DNA from: a candidate division WOR-3 bacterium
Lineage (GTDB): Bacteria > Hydrothermota > 32-111
NCBI GenBank assembly: GCA_037481815.1
Contig: JBBFKX010000003.1
Coordinates: 116,255-180,254 of the forward strand
Direction: 5' to 3'
DNA length: 64,000 bases
Of this stretch, positions 13,812 through 62,440 are shown piece after piece. Numbering within the stretch: the first letter of the stretch is position 1; each line of letters begins with the position of its first letter. A program made the position numbers and the translations under genes. Under the pieces are notes generated by a model, which was not told where the DNA came from, did no database searches, and worked only from the letters and a program-made list of their open reading frames with translations.

Positions 13812-14780
13812 TTAATTCAAAATGTTTCTGTATCGCAAAAAGAACTTTTCATCTTTTCCATAAAAACTGTCGTATCTGCTTACAAGATCGTTGTAAACCT
13901 TTTCATCAAGAACAACTTTCCCTATATAAAAAGGTTTACTTTTTGTCGTGAACGACCTTTTAAATTCACTCAGACCATCTTTTCCATCCTTGGTTCCGCC
14001 ACCAAGAATCATGACTTTGCTCCCACGATTCTTTGCCAATTCACATCCTTTATACAATAAAAGGTTTGAAAGACCTTTTGTGATCTCATCTTTTAATATT
14101 GTTGAAAGATGATAATAAGAGTTGAATTCATTTTCTATCAAAAACAATGATCCGCCAAAATATTTTTCATCTTTGTATGAGTTAAAAAGATATGAAAATT
14201 TTAAATTTTTTAAATTCAAAAAATATTTTTCGTTGAATTTTAAGAACTCTCTACCTTTCTTTTCTTCTATCATGTTTCTATAGAGTTCATAAAATTTTAA
14301 AAACTCTTCTTCCTTCTTTTCTTCTGAAATGTAAAAATTTTTTCTTTCAGCCAACCTTATTTTATTCCTGACGGAACTTTTAAACTCTTTTGTGTACCCA
14401 TCAACAAGATCAATATAGAAAACCTCTCTTATATACTCTATCCTGAAAAGATTGGACTCTGGAAGAGGGAAAAAAGGGTTAAATCTTATGAATCCAGCTA
14501 TAAGATTTTCCTTTTTTAAAAGGTTAAAAAGTTCTTCAAAAAAAGGTTCAGTAAAATCTTTTTCTTTGTTCGTTGTATAAAAAGAAGAATATCCATAAGG
14601 TGTCTCAAAATCTCTATATTTTTTGTTAACAAGAAGGATCAAAAAGATCAAATCACCATTTTTTTCTTTAAAATATAATTTTGCATCACCATAAAGTTTT
14701 GCATACTCTTCTAAAAACTGTAAATCTTTTATATTGTAATCTTTAAGAAGATTGTTCCAGTTATCACTTATTCTAATCAA
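13812..14780 (-). CDS. FemAB-like / GNAT (Acetyltransf_6-type) protein
   Basis: C-terminal pattern YYHLS...LLLYKGCELAKNRG...ILGGG...GLSEFKRSF resembles FemAB-family peptidyl/aminoacyl transferases; weak call. Confidence 0.45.
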   Translation of the reverse strand: MIRISDNWNNLLKDYNIKDLQFLEEYAKLYGDAKLYFKEKNGDLIFLILLVNKKYRDFETPYGYSSFYTTNKEKDFTEPFFEELFNLLKKENLIAGFIRFNPFFPLPESNLFRIEYIREVFYIDLVDGYTKEFKSSVRNKIRLAERKNFYISEEKKEEEFLKFYELYRNMIEEKKGREFLKFNEKYFLNLKNLKFSYLFNSYKDEKYFGGSLFLIENEFNSYYHLSTILKDEITKGLSNLLLYKGCELAKNRGSKVMILGGGTKDGKDGLSEFKRSFTTKSKPFYIGKVVLDEKVYNDLVSRYDSFYGKDEKFFLRYRNILN

Positions 14781-18192: not shown

Positions 18193-18200
18193 ATTAAAAA

Positions 18201-18533
18201 TGGAGGCGGCGGGAATCGAACCCGCGTCCAAAGATAGATGTTCAGTTCTTCTACATGCTTAGCATCCATGAATTTATCCTGATTGGCTGGATGCGACCTT
18301 TCAGGATTTTTGCCCTTCTCTTTTGGTATGATTTGGGCAGATCATACCAGCAGTCAGGATAGATGAAGGTCATTTCAAAACCCCTGACCGGTCTTGAAAG
18401 CCCTGCCGCTAAATTATGCGGCTAAAGCGAAATTGTTGTCTTTTCTTTTTCGCCGGTTTTTTTACGAGACACCAGCAATCTCGGCATGCTTCCCCTGAAC
18501 AAGATTATCCCTGTCGAGACCAATTTCGCCCCC
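18201..18533 (-). ncRNA. ssrA: tmRNA (transfer-messenger RNA)
   Basis: Minus strand starts GGGGGCGAAATTGGTCTCGAC and ends GGACGCGGGTTCGATTCCCGCCGCCTCCA. Acceptor stem has a G3:U pair and the T-arm is GGTTCGATTCC. Internal tag frame ends ...GAC AAC AAT TTC GCT TTA GCC GCA TAA (DNNFALAA stop). CCA is not encoded. Confidence 0.9.
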
Positions 18534-55265: not shown

Positions 55266-55376
55266 AAAAAATAAAAATGGGCAGATATTGAATCTGCCCG
55301 CTGAGCCCCGTAGGGCTTAACAGTTCGGCTTACGCCTTACTGGGACTTGACTACAAAACCATTTTAAGTAGAATTT
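55266..55376 (-). ncRNA. tracrRNA (predicted)
   Basis: Minus strand: AAATTCTACTTAAAATGGTTTTGTAGTCAAGTCCCAGTAAGGCGTAAGCCGAACTGTTAAGCCCTACGGGGCTCAGCGGGCAGATTCAATATCTGCCCATTTTTATTTTTT. A 36-nt anti-repeat (55339-55374) is complementary to the minus-sense repeat at 32/36 positions, with 2 G:U and 2 C:A. It is followed by a GGC-GTAA-GCC nexus-like hairpin, an AGCCC-TACG-GGGCT hairpin, and an 8-bp terminator stem (55279-55299) with a U-tract. Confidence 0.75.
55347..55374 (+). promoter_or_regulatory. predicted cas9 promoter embedded in the anti-repeat
   Basis: Plus strand TTGACT (55347-55352), 16 nt, TAGAAT (55369-55374); predicted start about 55381, 41 nt before the cas9 ATG; same architecture as the promoter in each CRISPR repeat. 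Confidence 0.45.
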
Positions 55377-55382
55377 AAAAAT

Positions 55383-55410
55383 ATTTTAACTATTTAAAAA
55401 TTTTTGTCAA
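55383..55410 (-). promoter_or_regulatory. predicted tracrRNA promoter
   Basis: Minus strand TTGACA (55410-55405), 16 nt, TAAAAT (55388-55383); predicted start about 55376, 2 nt before the anti-repeat. Confidence 0.55.
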
Positions 55411-55421
55411 GGGGGAATTTT

Positions 55422-58400
55422 ATGAAGTATGTTCTTGGTCTTGATCTTGGATACAATTCAATCGGCTGGGCTATTTTAGAACAGGATGAAAATGGTAATC
55501 CTGTAAAACTTATAAATACAGGTGTTAGATTGTTTGATCCTTCAGTAGAAGACATGGAAAAGGATGGAAAGGGAAAAACAAAAAATGTCACAAGAAGAGA
55601 GGCAAGATTAAGAAGAAGACAACTTTTTAGAAAAACGAAACGACTTGAAAAACTTTTAAATTTTTTTATAGAAAATAATTTTTTCGAAGATCAAAAAGAA
55701 AAGATTTATGATTCTTTTGAAAGGGACGAATTTTTATCCAAACTTGATAAAGAATTGTTAAATCCTTATATTTAAGAAGAAAAGGTCTTGATGAAAAACT
55801 TGAATTAAAAGAACTCGCAAGGATATTTTACCATATTGCACAACATAGAGGTTTTAAAACAACAAAACGAGAACTTGCAAAGATGGAAGATAATAATGAA
55901 AAGAAAAAAGAGTCAGGTATTGTGCAGAGTGAGATAAATTCTCTTGCTGAACAAATAAAACAATCTGGCAGTAGAACTTTGGGAGAATATTTTGCAACAC
56001 TTTTTGAAAAAGGAGAAAGAATCAGAGGAAAACATACAAGCAGAAAAATGTATGAAGAGGAGTTTGAGCAGATTTTTAAAAAACAGAAAGAGTTCTATCC
56101 AGAAATTTTAACAGATGATTTTAAGAAAAAACTTTACAAACTCATTTTCTTCCAGAGAGAATTGAAAAGCCAGAAAGATAAAGTTGGAGAATGTATTCTT
56201 GAAAAAGGTAAAAAAAGAGCACCCATTGCTCTCCTTGATTCTCAAAGGTTCAGATATATGTGCAAGGTAAACAATTTGAAACTGATTGATAAAGATACCG
56301 GAGAAATAACAGAGTTAACAAAAGAAGAAAAACAGAAAATTTTCAATGAACTCGAAAACAATGAAAAACTGACTTTTGATAAGATAAAAAAACTTCTTGG
56401 TATAAAAGACAAAGAAAGATTCATTTTCAATATAGAGAAAGGTGGAGAAAAACATATCACTGGAAACAGAACAAATGTGAAGATGAAAAAGGTTTTTGAT
56501 GATTGGGACAATTTTGATGAAGAGAAAAAGAACTCCATGATAAACGAAATCAGAACAATTGTAAAAATAGAAGCACTCGAAAGAAGAGGTTTAAAACTTG
56601 GATTTTCCCCTGAACAGGCAAAAAAATTCTCTCAGGTTGTTTTTGAAGATGGATATTTGAGTTATTCAAAAAAGGCGATCGAAAAACTTTTACCATTTTT
56701 AAAAGAAGGTTACAAAGAATATGATGCAATAAAAAAAGTTTACTCTGTTGAACTTGATAATCCAATACACGAAGAATTTGATTTTCTCCCTGAGATAGAA
56801 GATGTCATTCAAGTTAGAAATCCACTCGTTGAAAGAACCCTCTCTGAAACAAGATATCTTGTGAATTTTCTGATAAAAAAATATGGAAAACCAGAAACAA
56901 TAAAAATAGAACTTGCAAGAGAATTGAAACTTTCAAATAAACAGAAAGAACAAAAAGTAAAGGAGAATCGAGAAAACAGGAAAAGAAGAGAGGATGCAAT
57001 AGAAAAAATAAAAAATGATTTAAACATAACCGAACCAACAGAAGATCAGATTTTAAGATACCTTCTTGCAGAAGAATGTGGTTGGCATTGCCCTTATACT
57101 GGAAAATCTATTAATATAAACGACCTTTTGGGTCCTCATCCATTATTTGATATTGAGCATATAATTCCATTTGATAGATCTCTTGATAACTCTTTCTTAA
57201 ACAAAACTCTCTGCTACTCAGAAGAAAACAGAAATGTAAAACACAACAAAACACCCTATGAAGCATATTTTGGGACCGATAAGTGGGAAGCAATAATTGA
57301 AAGAGTAAAAAAATTCAATGGAAACGCCCGACTTGAAAAATTGAGAAGATTTCAGATGACACCAGAACAGGTTGAAAAACATTTTGAAGATTTTTCATCT
57401 CAATATTTGAACGACACAAGATACGCTTCAAAAGAAGCAAAAAAATATCTTGGTTTACTCTATGGTGGAATAAAAGATGATGGAATGGATAATAAAGGAA
57501 AAAGAAGAGTCATTGCAAGTTCTGGAAGAGTTACTTCAACATTAAGAAAAGCCCTTGGATTGAATACAATTTTAAACGAAGAAGATTTCAAAATAAGAGA
57601 TGACCATCGCCAGCATGCTATTGATGCTATAACAATAGCGTTAACTGATAATTCAACTATCAAAAAAATTTCTGATGCTGCAAAAAAAGAAAAATCTTTA
57701 GAAAAACTTTTCAAAAACTATCCTCTTCCATGGGAAAATTTCAGGCAGGAGGTTGAAGAAAAAATTACAAACCTTCTCGTTTCAAGAAAAGTTAACAAAA
57801 AAGTTTCAGGTCAGATACATGATGAAACATATTACAAAAAACCATTTGAAGAGAACGGTCAATCTTATACACACAAAAGAGTTAATTTGGAAAGTTTAAG
57901 TGAAAAAGATATTGACAATATAGTTGATGAAAGAATAAAAGAGATTGTAAAAACAACTCTAAACGGAGAAGATCCTAAAATCAAATTCAAAGATCCTAAA
58001 AATCATCCTTATGTCGAACAAAAAGATGGAAAAAAAGTTCAAATACATAAGGTTACAATAAAAACCAAATTTGAAACTTATAATGAAATTGGCCCAGAAA
58101 AAGCGAAAAGATATGTTCAATCAGCAGATAGCCATCATATTGAAATCTTTGAAGATTTGAAAACAGGCAAATGGGATGGATATGTTGTTTCTCTACTTGA
58201 GGCATACAAAAGAAAACAGAAAAATCTTCCAATCATAAACAGGAACTTCGGAGAGAACAAAAAATTCTTATTTTCTCTTGCAAAAGGAGAGGTTATCGAA
58301 CTTGATACTGAAGAGGGGAAAAGAGAGTTGTATGTTATAAAAAGAATAGCAGGGAACAATAAACAATTGTTGTTCACTAAAATCCATGATGCAAGAAAAT

Positions 58401-58519
58401 CTGATGAAATTAATAAAAACCCAAAAGGGCTAACAGCTGTTCCATCTGGACTACAGGCAAGAAATTGTAAAAAAGTTGTTATAAATATTCTTGGAGAAAA
58501 ACATTACGCAAATGATTGA
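55422..58519 (+). pseudogene. cas9: type II-C Cas9, about 1032 aa if repaired; interrupted by one frameshift near 55770 (true pseudogene or a sequencing/assembly error)
   Basis: ATG 55422 follows GGGGGA. Motifs in order: RuvC-I MKYVLGLDLGYNSIGWAIL (Asp at 55443-55445), bridge helix RREARLRRRQLFRKTKR, RuvC-II ETIKIELARE, HNH DIEHIIPFD...NKTL...NVKHNKTP (His at 57158-57160), RuvC-III DDHRQHAIDAITIAL. Frame 0 stops at TAA 55773-55775. Frame 2 is open from 55751 and continues LRRKGLDEKLELKELARIFYHIAQHRGFK through to 58519. Confidence 0.9.
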
Positions 58520-59432
58520 AAAAATAGTTGAGATTTCAGAAGGACCTGTAAAACTTTCTTCTGAGTATGAACAACTGATAGTATCAAAAAATGGAAGTGA
58601 AATTTTAAAAATTCCTTTAAATGAAATCGCTGTTATTCTAATTTCAACTCCACTTGCTTCAATTTCAACAAATGTAATTTCTCTAATAACCAAAAATAAA
58701 GGGATGATTGTAACCTGTGATCAATTCTATCTTCCAGTTGGTGTATTTTTACCTTATGAACTCAATTACATTCAATATGAAAGAATACAAAAACAGATTA
58801 ACGCTTCTTTGCCATTAAAAAAACAACTCTGGAAACAGATAATTTCAGAGAAAATAAATTCTCAGGCATCAGTTTTAAAAAAACATAAAGGAAACGATTT
58901 TGGACTTTTCTACATTTCACAAAAAGTTCAATCAGGTGATTCAACAAACCTTGAAGCATACTCTTCAAAAATCTACTGGAAACAACTTTTTGGAGAAAAA
59001 TTCAAACGCGATAAAGATCTACCTGGTGTTAATTCTATTTTAAACTATGGTTATACAATTTTAAGAGCGATGACAGCAAGAGCGGTCTGTTCTTCTGGAT
59101 TAAATCCAACACTTGGTATATTCCATCATAATAAATACAATACCTTCTGTCTTGCTGACGATCTTATGGAACCATATAGGCCTATAGTTGATGAGTTAAC
59201 TTATAAGTTGATGATCAACTCAGGAATACAACTCTTTTTAACAAAAGAGTTAAAAAAAGAAATCATCGAACAACTTCTGGACAAAAAATTTGAAGTTAAC
59301 AAAGAAAATTATTCACTTAACGAGTCACTGTTTAAATTAGCATCATCTCTTGTAAATGTTTATAATGGAAAAGAGAAAAAGTTAAATATTCCAACACCTT
59401 ATGAAAAGGAAAAAAACACCAACACAAAATAA
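58512..59432 (+). CDS. cas1: CRISPR-associated endonuclease Cas1 (type II)
   Basis: LNYGYTILRA...GIFHHNKYNTFCLADDLMEPYRPIVD catalytic-region pattern. The ATG at 58512 overlaps the cas9 stop (ATGATTGA); an alternative ATG lies at 58491. Confidence 0.9.
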   Translation: MIEKIVEISEGPVKLSSEYEQLIVSKNGSEILKIPLNEIAVILISTPLASISTNVISLITKNKGMIVTCDQFYLPVGVFLPYELNYIQYERIQKQINASLPLKKQLWKQIISEKINSQASVLKKHKGNDFGLFYISQKVQSGDSTNLEAYSSKIYWKQLFGEKFKRDKDLPGVNSILNYGYTILRAMTARAVCSSGLNPTLGIFHHNKYNTFCLADDLMEPYRPIVDELTYKLMINSGIQLFLTKELKKEIIEQLLDKKFEVNKENYSLNESLFKLASSLVNVYNGKEKKLNIPTPYEKEKNTNTK

Positions 59433-59751
59433 CAGATACCATTCGATGTGGATTTTAGCACTTTTCGATTTACCAACATTAACAAAAGAGGACAGAAAAA
59501 ATTACAGGGACTTTAGAAAAGAACTTTTAAAATCTGGTTTTGAACAATTACAATTTTCTGTGTATGCAAGATATGTCGGTGACGAAAAAAGAGCGGAAAC
59601 ATTTAAAAACAAAATAAAATCGGTTGTTCCACCAAAAGGTGAAGTCAGAATAATCTGTTTAACAGATATCCAGTTTGGAAAGATGGAAGTATATTATCAA
59701 AATTCCAGGAAAAAACCTGAAAAGAAACTTGAACAACTTCTACTTTTTTAA
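59401..59751 (+). CDS. cas2: CRISPR-associated endoribonuclease Cas2 (type II style)
   Basis: NRYHSMWILALFDLPTLTKEDRKNYRDFRKELLKSGFEQLQFSVYARY parallels the S. pyogenes-type Cas2 N-terminus (YRYMRMILMFDMPTDT..RK.YRKFRKFL...GF...QFSVY); overlaps the cas1 end. Confidence 0.85.
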   Translation: MKRKKTPTQNNRYHSMWILALFDLPTLTKEDRKNYRDFRKELLKSGFEQLQFSVYARYVGDEKRAETFKNKIKSVVPPKGEVRIICLTDIQFGKMEVYYQNSRKKPEKKLEQLLLF

Positions 59752-59768
59752 TCCAGTTTTAACAATAA

Positions 59769-59799
59769 ACCCTCTCATTGTGTGAACTTAAGAGAGGGT
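59769..59799 (-). terminator. hairpin between cas2 and repeat 1 (possible terminator of minus-strand array transcripts)
   Basis: ACCCTCTC (59769-59776) pairs with GAGAGGGT (59792-59799) across a 15-nt loop; on the minus strand it is followed by TTTATTGTT. Confidence 0.35.
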
Positions 59800-59801
59800 C
59801 T

Positions 59802-61488
59802 ATTCTACTTGAAATGGTTTTGTGGTCAAGCCCCAGCAAAGTTTTATGCATAGATTCTAAAATTAGTATTCTACTTGAAATGGTTTTGTGGTCAAGCCCC
59901 AGCGAAAAATCCTTTGACTTTTCTACAATGCTTATTCTACTTGAAATGGTTTTGTGGTCAAGCCCCAGCGCGATTATATTCTTCAAAACAAAATCCTCTA
60001 TTCTACTTGAAATGGTTTTGTGGTCAAGCCCCAGCTAAACTATGACAATAGTGAGGATACTGCTAATTCTACTTGAAATGGTTTTGTGGTCAAGCCCCAG
60101 CAACCTTCTTTTGATAATGTCAATATGATAAATTCTACTTGAAATGGTTTTGTGGTCAAGCCCCAGCGGGATAGCGGAGCAATAGAAAGTGATGCATATT
60201 CTACTTGAAATGGTTTTGTGGTCAAGCCCCAGCCAAATAAGAGATGATATAGAAGTACTATATATTCTACTTGAAATGGTTTTGTGGTCAAGCCCCAGCT
60301 ACTCGCTTCTTTCAAGGATGAAAAATAAAATTCTACTTGAAATGGTTTTGTGGTCAAGCCCCAGCGCTGGAGTTTGTTTCAAGTAATGACTCACCATTCT
60401 ACTTGAAATGGTTTTGTGGTCAAGCCCCAGCAACTTATGAGGTTTATAAAAAATTAAACGAATTCTACTTGAAATGGTTTTGTGGTCAAGCCCCAGCAAA
60501 AAAATGTTTTATATATAATAGAAACAAATTCTACTTGAAATGGTTTTGTGGTCAAGCCCCAGCAGCTTTGAACCCGGTTTATACAGTATTCATATTCTAC
60601 TTGAAATGGTTTTGTGGTCAAGCCCCAGCCAATTCTTGTGCTTTGTTTTCAAGTGTGTTATTCTACTTGAAATGGTTTTGTGGTCAAGCCCCAGCAAAGG
60701 AATAGGTGTTGGTTTAGGGGCTGGTATTCTACTTGAAATGGTTTTGTGGTCAAGCCCCAGCCATAGATGGGTCTGATGCATACCCAGATAAATTCTACTT
60801 GAAATGGTTTTGTGGTCAAGCCCCAGCTGTTTAATTTGCTTCCTGTATTGTAATATTATTCTACTTGAAATGGTTTTGTGGTCAAGCCCCAGCCAAAAAC
60901 CAAAATGACAGATGTTGAAAGTGATTCTACTTGAAATGGTTTTGTGGTCAAGCCCCAGCCATAGATGGGTCTGATGCATACCCAGATAAATTCTACTTGA
61001 AATGGTTTTGTGGTCAAGCCCCAGCTGTTTAATTTGCTTCCTGTATTGTAATATTATTCTACTTGAAATGGTTTTGTGGTCAAGCCCCAGCCAAAAACCA
61101 AAATGACAGATGTTGAAAGTGATTCTACTTGAAATGGTTTTGTGGTCAAGCCCCAGCTATCGATTTGGTTTTGTAATAACATGGTTAATTCTACTTGAAA
61201 TGGTTTTGTGGTCAAGCCCCAGCCTCGAGTTTGTTTCAAGTAATGACTCACCAATTCTACTTGAAATGGTTTTGTGGTCAAGCCCCAGCACCCGGCTTCA
61301 ATGTTTTTATCTGTATTGAATTCTACTTGAAATGGTTTTGTGGTCAAGCCCCAGCTCGACTGCACTGGAGATGCTGTTGTTGGAGAATTCTACTTGAAAT
61401 GGTTTTGTGGTCAAGCCCCAGCTCATTTTTTTGTAAAACTTCCTTAAAAAATATTCTACTTGAAATGTTTTTGTGGTCAAGCCCCAGC
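59802..61488 (-). CRISPR. CRISPR array, 26 repeats / 25 spacers; transcription inferred on the minus strand
   Basis: 36-bp repeat ATTCTACTTGAAATGGTTTTGTGGTCAAGCCCCAGC with a 66-bp period from 59802. Spacers are 30 bp (spacer 24 is 31 bp). The last repeat (61453-61488) has G to T at 61468. Orientation comes from tracrRNA complementarity and the promoter motif in the repeat. Confidence 0.97.
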
Positions 61489-61516
61489 TAAGAAGTATAT
61501 TGTTAAATTGTTATTG

Positions 61517-61804
61517 GGGACGGTGCTTGACTTTTTGACTTTTTTTTGTAACTTTATTTTTTTACGAAACTTAAAATTGATATAAATTTTTAGTTTTTTT
61601 TAATTTTTTTAAAACAAAAAAGTAAACTTTTTTATTCAATATCTTTTTTTGCCTTTGTTTATGATAGTTTCGGAATAATATAAATAGTGAAAATACAACA
61701 AAAACCTTAAAAAAATAAATAAAATTCTAACAGTTTTTTTTCGTATAACTTATTTTAAAACAATAAGTTAAAATATTTACTGTCAAAAAGTCAAGCACCG
61801 TCCC
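61517..61804. repeat. MITE-like element: perfect 23-bp terminal inverted repeats around a 242-bp AT-rich non-coding core
   Basis: GGGACGGTGCTTGACTTTTTGAC at 61517-61539 and its exact reverse complement at 61782-61804; no ORF inside; no obvious target-site duplication. Confidence 0.4.
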
Positions 61805-61863
61805 TAAGTTTATTTTTATATTAAAATCTTGTTTTATCTTAAATAACCTGTTATAATTATTTT

Positions 61864-62058
61864 ATGAAAAAACCTGTAAAAATTCTAAAGCAAAAGGAAA
61901 AAGCAGAATTTAATCGAAGTGTCTGGCATAACATGACTCCTGATGAAAGATTACAGATTGTTGAAAAATTAAAAGAAAATTATGTCAAAAGTTTTTTAAA
62001 CAAAAATGCACAAGGATTTAAAAGAGTTTTTAAAAAGTTTAAACGAAAAAAAAGTTGA
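61864..62058 (+). CDS. small hypothetical ORF upstream of and overlapping the NTase-fold gene
   Basis: 64-aa basic ORF; overlaps the next ORF by 53 nt in another frame, so it could be an independent partner gene or a frameshifted N-terminus. Confidence 0.3.
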   Translation: MKKPVKILKQKEKAEFNRSVWHNMTPDERLQIVEKLKENYVKSFLNKNAQGFKRVFKKFKRKKS

Positions 62059-62440
62059 TTACATGATTGTTGGAGGAATAGCAGTAGCATATTACGGTTA
62101 TCCCCGCTACACTGGTGATATAGACATCTGGATAAAAAAGTCAAAAGAAAATGCTCAAAAAGTTATTGAGGTGGTAAAAAATTTTGGCTATTCAAATATC
62201 GATTTATCACTTGAGGATCTCCTTGAAGATAATATGGTTTTTCAATTCGGAGTTGAACCAAATAGAAACGATTTAATCACAGATCTGGATGGTATAACTT
62301 TTGAAAAAGCAGAGAAAAATAAACAATTGATATCTCTTTAAAACATTTCAGTTTATATTGTTTCTCTTGAAGATTTAAAGAAAAATAAAAAGGCATCAGG
62401 AAGATATAAAGATCTTGATGATATTGAAAATCTTCCGTGA
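62006..62440 (+). pseudogene. small nucleotidyltransferase-fold protein interrupted by an in-frame TAA
   Basis: VDYMIVGGIAVAYYGYPRYTGDIDIW (a GG...G-x-D-x-D NTase-type motif). A TAA at 62339-62341 is followed in the same frame by NISVYIVSLEDLKKNKKASGRYKDLDDIENLP, the conserved C-terminus of this family. Confidence 0.55.

Follow-up and report, generated by a model that had tools for sequence, protein, structure and literature searches.

[quoted passage not shown] Such promoters have been demonstrated in Neisseria meningitidis (Zhang et al. 2013, as reported in PMC5965381 and PMC12477760), where transcription starts at the sixth nucleotide of the spacer (PMC12477760). The single-repeat R26 allele of Neisseria is reported to give no crRNA (PMC12477760), as is expected of the cas2-proximal repeat described below. 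In Campylobacter jejuni, each crRNA is made from the promoter GGTAAAAT in the upstream repeat and starts at spacer position 5 (PMC3656092). An extended -10 element has been noted in the repeats of Clostridium cellulolyticum (PMC7038990), and across 58 surveyed II-C species the repeats were described as having gnTAnaaT at their 3' end, the array as convergent and the degenerate repeat as transcription-proximal (PMC4607530). For Flavobacterium, a TTG encoded in the repeat has been proposed as a -33 element (PMC8092290, PMC10309648), and II-C arrays have been stated to be expressed from within, toward their variable end (PMC8092290). Spacers are acquired next to cas2 in the II-C systems of Riemerella and Campylobacter (PMC6008519), and Chylinski et al. 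pointed out that, in Neisseria and Campylobacter, an orientation predicted from degenerate repeats is wrong (PMC3737331). The type II-C literature already covers promoters inside repeats, arrays that converge with the cas genes and transcription that runs to the variable end. The Neisseria and Campylobacter precedent, which a preliminary description of the present DNA had invoked, is to be found in this literature (PMC5965381, PMC3656092, PMC4607530, PMC12477760).

Here, we compare these systems with a locus found in a window of 64,000 nucleotides (the whole stretch of DNA that was analysed, to which all coordinates refer). Its operon consists of cas9 (55422-58519, plus strand; the orthologue has 1032 amino acids), cas1 (58512-59432, plus strand; type II, cas1_NMENI) and cas2 (59401-59751, plus strand), followed directly by the array, with gyrA upstream (open reading frames and Pfam/NCBIfam matches). 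By the same means neither csn2 nor cas4 was found in the cas operon, and a cas9-cas1-cas2 set without either gene assigns the system to type II-C. The closest Cas9 proteins share 94% and 91% identity, are 1032 amino acids long and stem from candidate division WOR-3 genomes, one of which (L002) shares synteny and 88% nucleotide identity with the window. The best relatives of solved structure are NmeCas9 entries (E 1.5e-77), and the protein belongs to a compact, Nme-like II-C lineage of about 1000-1100 amino acids. Judged by its gene content and protein sequences, the locus is a Neisseria-like type II-C CRISPR-Cas9 system of a candidate division WOR-3 bacterium.

In the window, cas9 is frameshifted. 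Compared with three relatives, a 1-nt deletion at about 55771, within a T-run, leads to a stop at 55773-55775. The stop falls after codon 117; the frame then resumes, and 878 codons are intact up to 58519. The deletion may reflect either recent inactivation or an error in sequencing. With cas9 frameshifted, the system may not be active at present.

The array (59802-61488, crRNA sense on the minus strand) comprises 26 repeats of 36 nt and 25 spacers, which are 30 nt long in 24 cases and 31 nt in one. The repeat reads ATTCTACTTGAAATGGTTTTGTGGTCAAGCCCCAGC on the plus strand and GCTGGGGCTTGACCACAAAACCATTTCAAGTAGAAT on the minus strand. Twenty-five of the 26 copies are identical; the sole deviant is the cas-distal repeat (61453-61488), with a single change, G16 to T. 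A promoter scan found TTGACC-16-TAGAAT in 26/26 repeats on the minus strand, with 10/12 matches to the consensus and no TG before the -10 element, and nothing comparable on the plus strand of the repeat. Read on the minus strand, TTGACC occupies repeat positions 9-14 and TAGAAT positions 31-36, the final six nucleotides, with 16 nt between them. For a repeat that starts at plus-strand coordinate s, the -10 TAGAAT thus covers s to s+5 and the -35 TTGACC s+22 to s+27. The deviant base of the cas-distal repeat falls into the 16-nt promoter spacer, outside both boxes. TAGAAT is preceded by AAG, and a TGn extension is absent; the experimentally proven promoters of Neisseria, Campylobacter and C. 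cellulolyticum do have one, which counts against promoter activity of the motif. As cas9, cas1 and cas2 lie on the plus strand and end at 59751, with the array beyond, all motifs are aimed at cas2. Box positions, spacing and the presence of the complete motif in every repeat, pointing toward the cas genes, are as the preliminary description had given them.

In transcription order, the cas-distal copy (61453-61480, minus strand; -35 61480-61475, -10 61458-61453) comes first, with a start predicted about 6-8 nt into the spacer at 61423-61452. The last copy, next to cas2 (59802-59829, minus strand), would fire into a hairpin. It has neither spacer nor repeat downstream, so that no crRNA is expected from it. 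The earlier count of 26 promoters antisense toward cas2 consequently stands for the motifs, but only 25 of them precede a spacer, and 25 productive promoters are predicted.

How often would such a motif arise by chance? In a simulation, 0.5% of random 36-mers of the window's composition contained a match of at least 10/12 on either strand. The same simulation gave 0.07% for a match with the -10 flush at a 3' end, and shuffles of the repeat itself gave 0.18%. The 26 copies represent a single evolutionary event, and therefore these figures, not the copy number, provide the relevant chance estimate. At a simulated frequency of 0.5% or less, a chance origin of the motif was rejected.

WOR-3 belongs to the FCB group, and the Bacteroidetes in that group use a different promoter type. 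For this reason we tested which type the host uses. In 5.1 kb of intergenic DNA from the window there were 8 matches of at least 11/12 to TTGACA-N16-18-TATAAT, where 0.33 were expected and the maximum in 200 simulations was 3. The density of such matches in intergenic DNA of the window was 22-fold that in coding DNA. The -7 motif of Bacteroidetes, TAnnTTTG, was not enriched in the same intergenic DNA (3 vs 8.3 expected). With canonical boxes strongly enriched and TAnnTTTG unenriched, Bacteroidetes-type promoters were rejected for this host, which by these counts clearly uses canonical sigma70 promoters with -35 and -10 boxes. Within this sequence-derived set, a 10/12 match with 16-nt spacing is in the range of the organism's own promoters.

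The sense of the crRNA can be deduced from the tracrRNA. Outside the array, the window contains a single repeat-like copy, an anti-repeat at 55339-55374, between the gene neighbouring gyrA and cas9; read on the minus strand (55374-55339), it is identical to the complement of the repeat at 32/36 positions. It forms part of a putative tracrRNA (about 55270-55376, minus strand) that contains the anti-repeat, two stems and a terminator hairpin with a U-run (55299-55279, minus strand). The tracrRNA promoter (55383-55410, minus strand; TTGACA-16-TAAAAT) matches the consensus at 11/12 positions and reaches 12/12 in several relatives. Its predicted start, 55376/55375, is the first base of the anti-repeat. 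Repeat and anti-repeat are predicted to pair over almost all 36 positions, with a duplex energy of -81.5 kcal/mol, and the tracrRNA stems covary, with compensatory changes in 7 pairs among 8 relatives. A plus-strand array transcript, being equal in sense to the anti-repeat, would be unable to pair with it. The crRNA sense is hence the minus strand, as fixed by the predicted tracrRNA promoter and terminator and by the covarying stems. All of these agree with the orientation of the repeat motif, for which the match between promoter direction and tracrRNA-derived sense had been claimed before. Rfam contained no match for the tracrRNA region or for the element in the cas-distal flank discussed below. 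A protospacer and PAM check of the crRNA sense gave no match for two spacers searched against viral contigs. The core of a twice-acquired spacer was not matched in metagenome contigs, nor was any spacer matched in the fetched loci.

The two ends of the array indicate its polarity. The variant base of the cas-distal repeat is the norm in all repeats of two relatives at 94% (L081 and L082), whose arrays have a variant repeat of their own, likewise at the cas-distal end. Since variant terminal repeats mark the old end of an array, spacer acquisition probably takes place beside cas2, in agreement with the published findings on Riemerella and C. jejuni (PMC6008519) and on transcription toward the variable end (PMC8092290). 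No spacers from which the polarity could be read directly are common to the window, L002, L081 and L082, and two further assemblies (L085, L086) hold a single repeat each. At the cas2 side, a hairpin (59764-59804, minus strand) abuts the first repeat, in the position of the presumed leader. In it, CCCTCTC (59770-59776) pairs with GAGAGGG (59792-59798), and TTTATTGTT follows on the minus strand. The fold has a predicted energy of -19.9 kcal/mol (z -3.65). An equivalent hairpin of unrelated sequence is found at the same place in 38/47 related loci, and the hairpin probably terminates array transcripts before cas2. The direction of the promoters, toward cas2, was rightly described, but antisense transcription of cas2 itself is probably blocked by this hairpin and its T-run.

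To place the motif in a wider context, species-representative genomes were scanned with a Cas9 alignment. This yielded 80 loci from more than ten phyla, including WOR-3, Zixibacteria, Ignavibacteria, Nitrospirota, Chloroflexota, Planctomycetota, Acidobacteriota and Hydrogenedentota. Further loci were added by look-ups of the closest proteins, and the set used for comparison contains 47 distinct 36-nt repeats. The loci all have the layout of the window, with the tracrRNA on the minus strand, cas9-cas1-cas2 on the plus strand and an array with minus-strand crRNA sense. From the strand of the predicted tracrRNA it is deduced that the array is convergent with the cas operon, an architecture found likewise in about 37 related loci.

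TAnAnT forms the last six bases in 46/47 distinct repeats of this Cas9 clade. Among the first 41 repeats compared, T31, A34 and T36 are invariant and A32 is present in 40. A TTG at positions 9-11 or 8-10 occurs in about 90% of the 47 repeats, at a spacing of 16-17 nt, and the mean -35 score over the 47 is 4.2/6, compared with 2.3 in shuffles. A total of at least 10/12 with a full TTGAC box is reached by 14/47, mostly the nearer relatives of the window, and a TGn precedes the -10 in just 4/47. In nine loci of the WOR-3 clade, with Cas9 identities as low as 49%, substitutions in the hexamers are confined to positions under weak constraint and bring them closer to the consensus, giving TTGACC, TTGACT or TTGACA and TAGAAT or TATAAT, while repeat positions 15-30 vary freely. 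A preference for purines at the predicted start, spacer positions 5-9, was absent in 124 spacers of the WOR-3 clade and in all 828 spacers. With no such bias at the predicted starts, the purine test is uninformative.

Taken together, we consider it likely that each repeat doubles as a sigma70 promoter and that crRNAs are started within the spacers. In this model, RNA polymerase would initiate some 6-8 nt inside the neighbouring 30-nt spacer and produce a short primary transcript, composed of a guide of 22-25 nt and the repeat that follows it. Almost the full length of this repeat would pair with the tracrRNA, which is transcribed from the minus strand upstream of cas9, and RNase III could then shorten the 3' end, as happens in Neisseria and Campylobacter. 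Transcription would run from the old, cas-distal end toward the end adjacent to cas2, where new spacers enter, and the hairpin with its T-run between the first repeat and cas2 would halt transcripts before they become antisense to cas2. Because transcription toward the leader end would mean that no leader promoter could serve the array, each unit would need a promoter of its own. From the repeat comparison, the -10 element is well supported and a separate contribution of the -35 box is plausible. Both boxes are present, as had been noticed earlier, but the function of the -35 box is inseparable from the constraints that the RNA duplex, Cas9 or the integrase place on the same bases.

An alternative, to which we give a low probability, is that initiation occurs through the -10 hexamer only, and that TTGACC is a by-product of constraints from the crRNA:tracrRNA duplex, Cas9 or Cas1-Cas2. 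Repeat positions 1-13 are conserved en bloc, and positions 1-8, which contain no promoter element, are conserved as strongly as the -35 box. Since the bases at 9-13 also take part in pairing with the tracrRNA, conservation of TTGAC could reflect any of these constraints. In distant loci the TTGAC region has turned into a bulge of the duplex and TTGAC is lost, while TAnAnT is kept; as TTGAC is restricted to the nearer relatives, shared ancestry may explain the box. Across the 47 repeats, the qualities of the -35 and -10 elements show no compensation (rho 0.08). Against these points, the spacing of 16-17 nt is maintained throughout the clade, the sixth position of the -35 box changes to T or A and not away from the consensus, and the host's own promoters have strong -35 boxes. 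A bare TAGAAT hexamer without TGn is normally a weak promoter, and the lack of a TGn in the repeat is one point in favour of a role of the -35 box.

Could the array instead be read from outside? A single long pre-crRNA that starts outside the array, at a promoter in the flank beyond its cas-distal end (from 61489), and is cut by RNase III with the tracrRNA, would go with an inactive repeat motif. The near-perfect 36-bp repeat:anti-repeat duplex would be an ideal substrate for RNase III, and in Neisseria long precursors coexist with internal starts (PMC5965381). In addition, an AT-rich element of about 290 bp (61517-61806), bounded by the inverted repeat GGGACGGTGCTTGAC, adjoins the cas-distal (trailer) end and is conserved in L002 and L081, and thus in three strains with the window. 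This element has no clear promoter toward the array, however, and the best minus-strand match within 61489-61900 is no better than 9/12, with none of the matches conserved. An external promoter in this flank was rejected, as none was convincing or conserved. Moreover, the newest spacers would be farthest from such a promoter, and the TAnAnT with which 46 of the 47 repeat types end would be left unexplained. We regard a single external start as very improbable. Hardly more probable is that the locus is decaying, the repeat promoters being relics that no longer serve immunity. The frameshift in cas9 speaks for decay, but the remaining 878 codons of cas9 as well as cas1 and cas2 are intact, all repeats except one are identical, and a deletion in a T-run sits at a typical site of sequencing error. 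Decay would, furthermore, bear on current activity and not on the nature of the motif.

The anti-repeat is of interest as well. On the plus strand, its DNA contains a promoter of the repeat type (55347-55374; TTGACT-16-TAGAAT), 47 nt before the cas9 ATG, which is a candidate promoter of cas9-cas1-cas2. It is the best plus-strand candidate upstream of cas9 in 18/37 loci, including all AT-rich ones. In one relative (L087), the hexamer reads TATAAT in the anti-repeat but TAGAAT in the repeat, which gives a better -10 but a mismatch in the RNA duplex. The tracrRNA promoter (55410-55383 on the minus strand) lies immediately downstream, and the two overlap almost completely and divergently. Their predicted starts, 55376 on the minus strand and about 55380 on the plus strand, are separated by some 4 bp and divergent. 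The -35 box of the tracrRNA promoter also overlaps the Shine-Dalgarno sequence of cas9 (GTCAAGGGGG on the plus strand), and the string formed by this overlap, GTCAAGG, is shared by loci from different phyla. No description of such an overlapping arrangement was found in the literature searched. Owing to the overlap, initiation of cas9 and of the tracrRNA would be mutually exclusive. We tentatively suggest that the Cas9 clade may use its repeat twice as a complete and portable sigma70 promoter, for the crRNAs and, via the fossil repeat in the tracrRNA anti-repeat, for the cas operon, although we hold this to be doubtful. If true, it would provide a built-in balance between the nuclease and its guide scaffold, and the module would express itself after transfer between phyla.

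In the comparison with known systems, the Flavobacterium columnare and F. psychrophilum arrays resemble the present one in that an upstream TTG in the repeat has been proposed as the promoter and that transcription runs toward the variable (leader) end, as it probably does here. They differ in having the Bacteroidetes-type pair of a -33 TTG and a -7 TAnnTTTG as well as longer repeats, whereas the WOR-3 repeat, like the promoters of its host, has canonical -35 and -10 boxes. As in C. jejuni, the promoter is placed in the 3' portion of the repeat preceding each crRNA, array and cas genes are antisense to one another, the repeat at the transcription-proximal end is degenerate and new spacers would enter next to cas2 (PMC6008519). 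The C. jejuni box GGTAAAAT is, in contrast, described as extended -10-like with no -35 mentioned, its start is at spacer position 5, and its tracrRNA lies downstream of the array. No canonical -35 box in II-C repeats was described in the literature searched, of which coverage is incomplete.

The locus is also like that of Neisseria. Both systems consist of cas9-cas1-cas2 only, with 36-nt repeats, 30-nt spacers and an array convergent with the cas genes, and NmeCas9 is the closest solved structure. In both, the last six repeat bases form the -10 (TACAAT in Neisseria, TAGAAT here), the start lies a few bases into the spacer (at the 6th nucleotide in Neisseria; predicted from the motif here), and the 5' ends of the repeats are alike (GTTGTAGC in Neisseria, GCTGGGGC here). 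In contrast, the Neisseria repeat has the extended -10 TGCTACAAT and no -35 (its positions 9-14 read TCCCTT), while the WOR-3 repeat has TTGACC and no TGn. Here, the tracrRNA is encoded upstream of cas9 and divergently from it. The host is an uncultured WOR-3 bacterium, and the promoters in its repeats are predicted.

The mechanism is therefore known, and the understanding of how type II-C systems work is left unchanged; what differs is the architecture of the promoter, -35 plus -10 instead of an extended -10, which is a modest variation. For the use of compact Cas9 proteins of this clade, the comparison sets the strand of the crRNA and a likely guide length of about 22-25 nt, and it argues for orienting these arrays contrary to the customary rule. 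It also draws attention to the possibility that cas9 and the tracrRNA are transcribed in a coupled manner. By this analysis, the range of repeat-embedded crRNA promoters grows to include WOR-3, an uncultured phylum, and a large Cas9 clade from the environment that spans more than ten phyla, in which a bipartite -35/-10 promoter can apparently do the job that the extended -10 does in Neisseria and Campylobacter.

The DNA around the anti-repeat (55339-55410) carries two predicted promoters that overlap and diverge. On the plus strand, a promoter of the same type as that found in the repeats (TTGACT-16-TAGAAT) lies within the anti-repeat DNA and points to cas9, while the sequence TTGACA-16-TAAAAT on the minus strand forms the tracrRNA promoter. 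The -35 box of the latter shares bases with the Shine-Dalgarno sequence of cas9, and the motif GTCAAGG at this overlap is kept in most of 37 related loci.

Comparison with the related loci L002, L081 and L084 revealed a 1-nt deletion within a T-run at about position 55771, which frameshifts the cas9 gene of the window (55422-58519). The shifted frame meets a stop codon at 55773-55775 (plus strand). Apart from the frameshift cas9 is intact, with an N-terminal part of 117 aa and 878 codons following. The gene is either a recent pseudogene or carries a homopolymer sequencing error.

At the other end of the cas operon, a strong hairpin (59764-59804) touches the cas2-proximal repeat. At the same position in the related Cas9 loci (L001-L090), a hairpin is kept in 38 of 47 loci, where its structure is conserved and its sequence is not. 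The hairpin probably terminates the transcripts of the array and belongs to the presumed leader.

Within the array, three repeat-spacer units are duplicated exactly in tandem (60726-60923 and 60924-61121), and a block of seven units is duplicated in the array of the syntenic locus L002. Both duplications presumably arose by recombination between repeats. Two spacers (60366-60395 and 61224-61253) derive from one common protospacer. They are shifted by 1 nt relative to each other and differ by a single mismatch, which suggests that they were acquired independently, from related invaders. In L085 and L086, two short-read assemblies with the same Cas9 as L084, a single repeat is found at about 14460-14500 in place of the long array of L084, which reflects either assembly collapse or a real loss of the array.

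Elsewhere in the window, a tmRNA gene (18198-18533, minus strand) is predicted to encode the tag peptide GEKEKTTISL, the ending of which is atypical. This gene is preceded by a TATAAT box, and a TTGAAA box lies another 19 nt upstream of that.

On its cas-distal side, the array is flanked by an AT-rich element roughly 290 bp long (61517-61806; L002, 16574-16857; L081, 15488-15773), which is delimited by the inverted repeat GGGACGGTGCTTGAC and kept in these three strains. Single copies of an arm of this inverted repeat occur elsewhere in L084 and L085. An Rfam search of the element gave no match, and no clear promoter was found in it. Further out, two small overlapping ORFs (61864-62341), the second of which is nucleotidyltransferase-like, are present in L081 and absent from the corresponding place in L002. 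They may constitute a toxin-antitoxin pair inserted next to the array. The only variant repeat of the window is also cas-distal (61453-61488). Its variant base is the norm throughout the repeats of L081 and L082, the 94% relatives, whose arrays have a variant of their own, with an AGT ending, in the cas-distal repeat.
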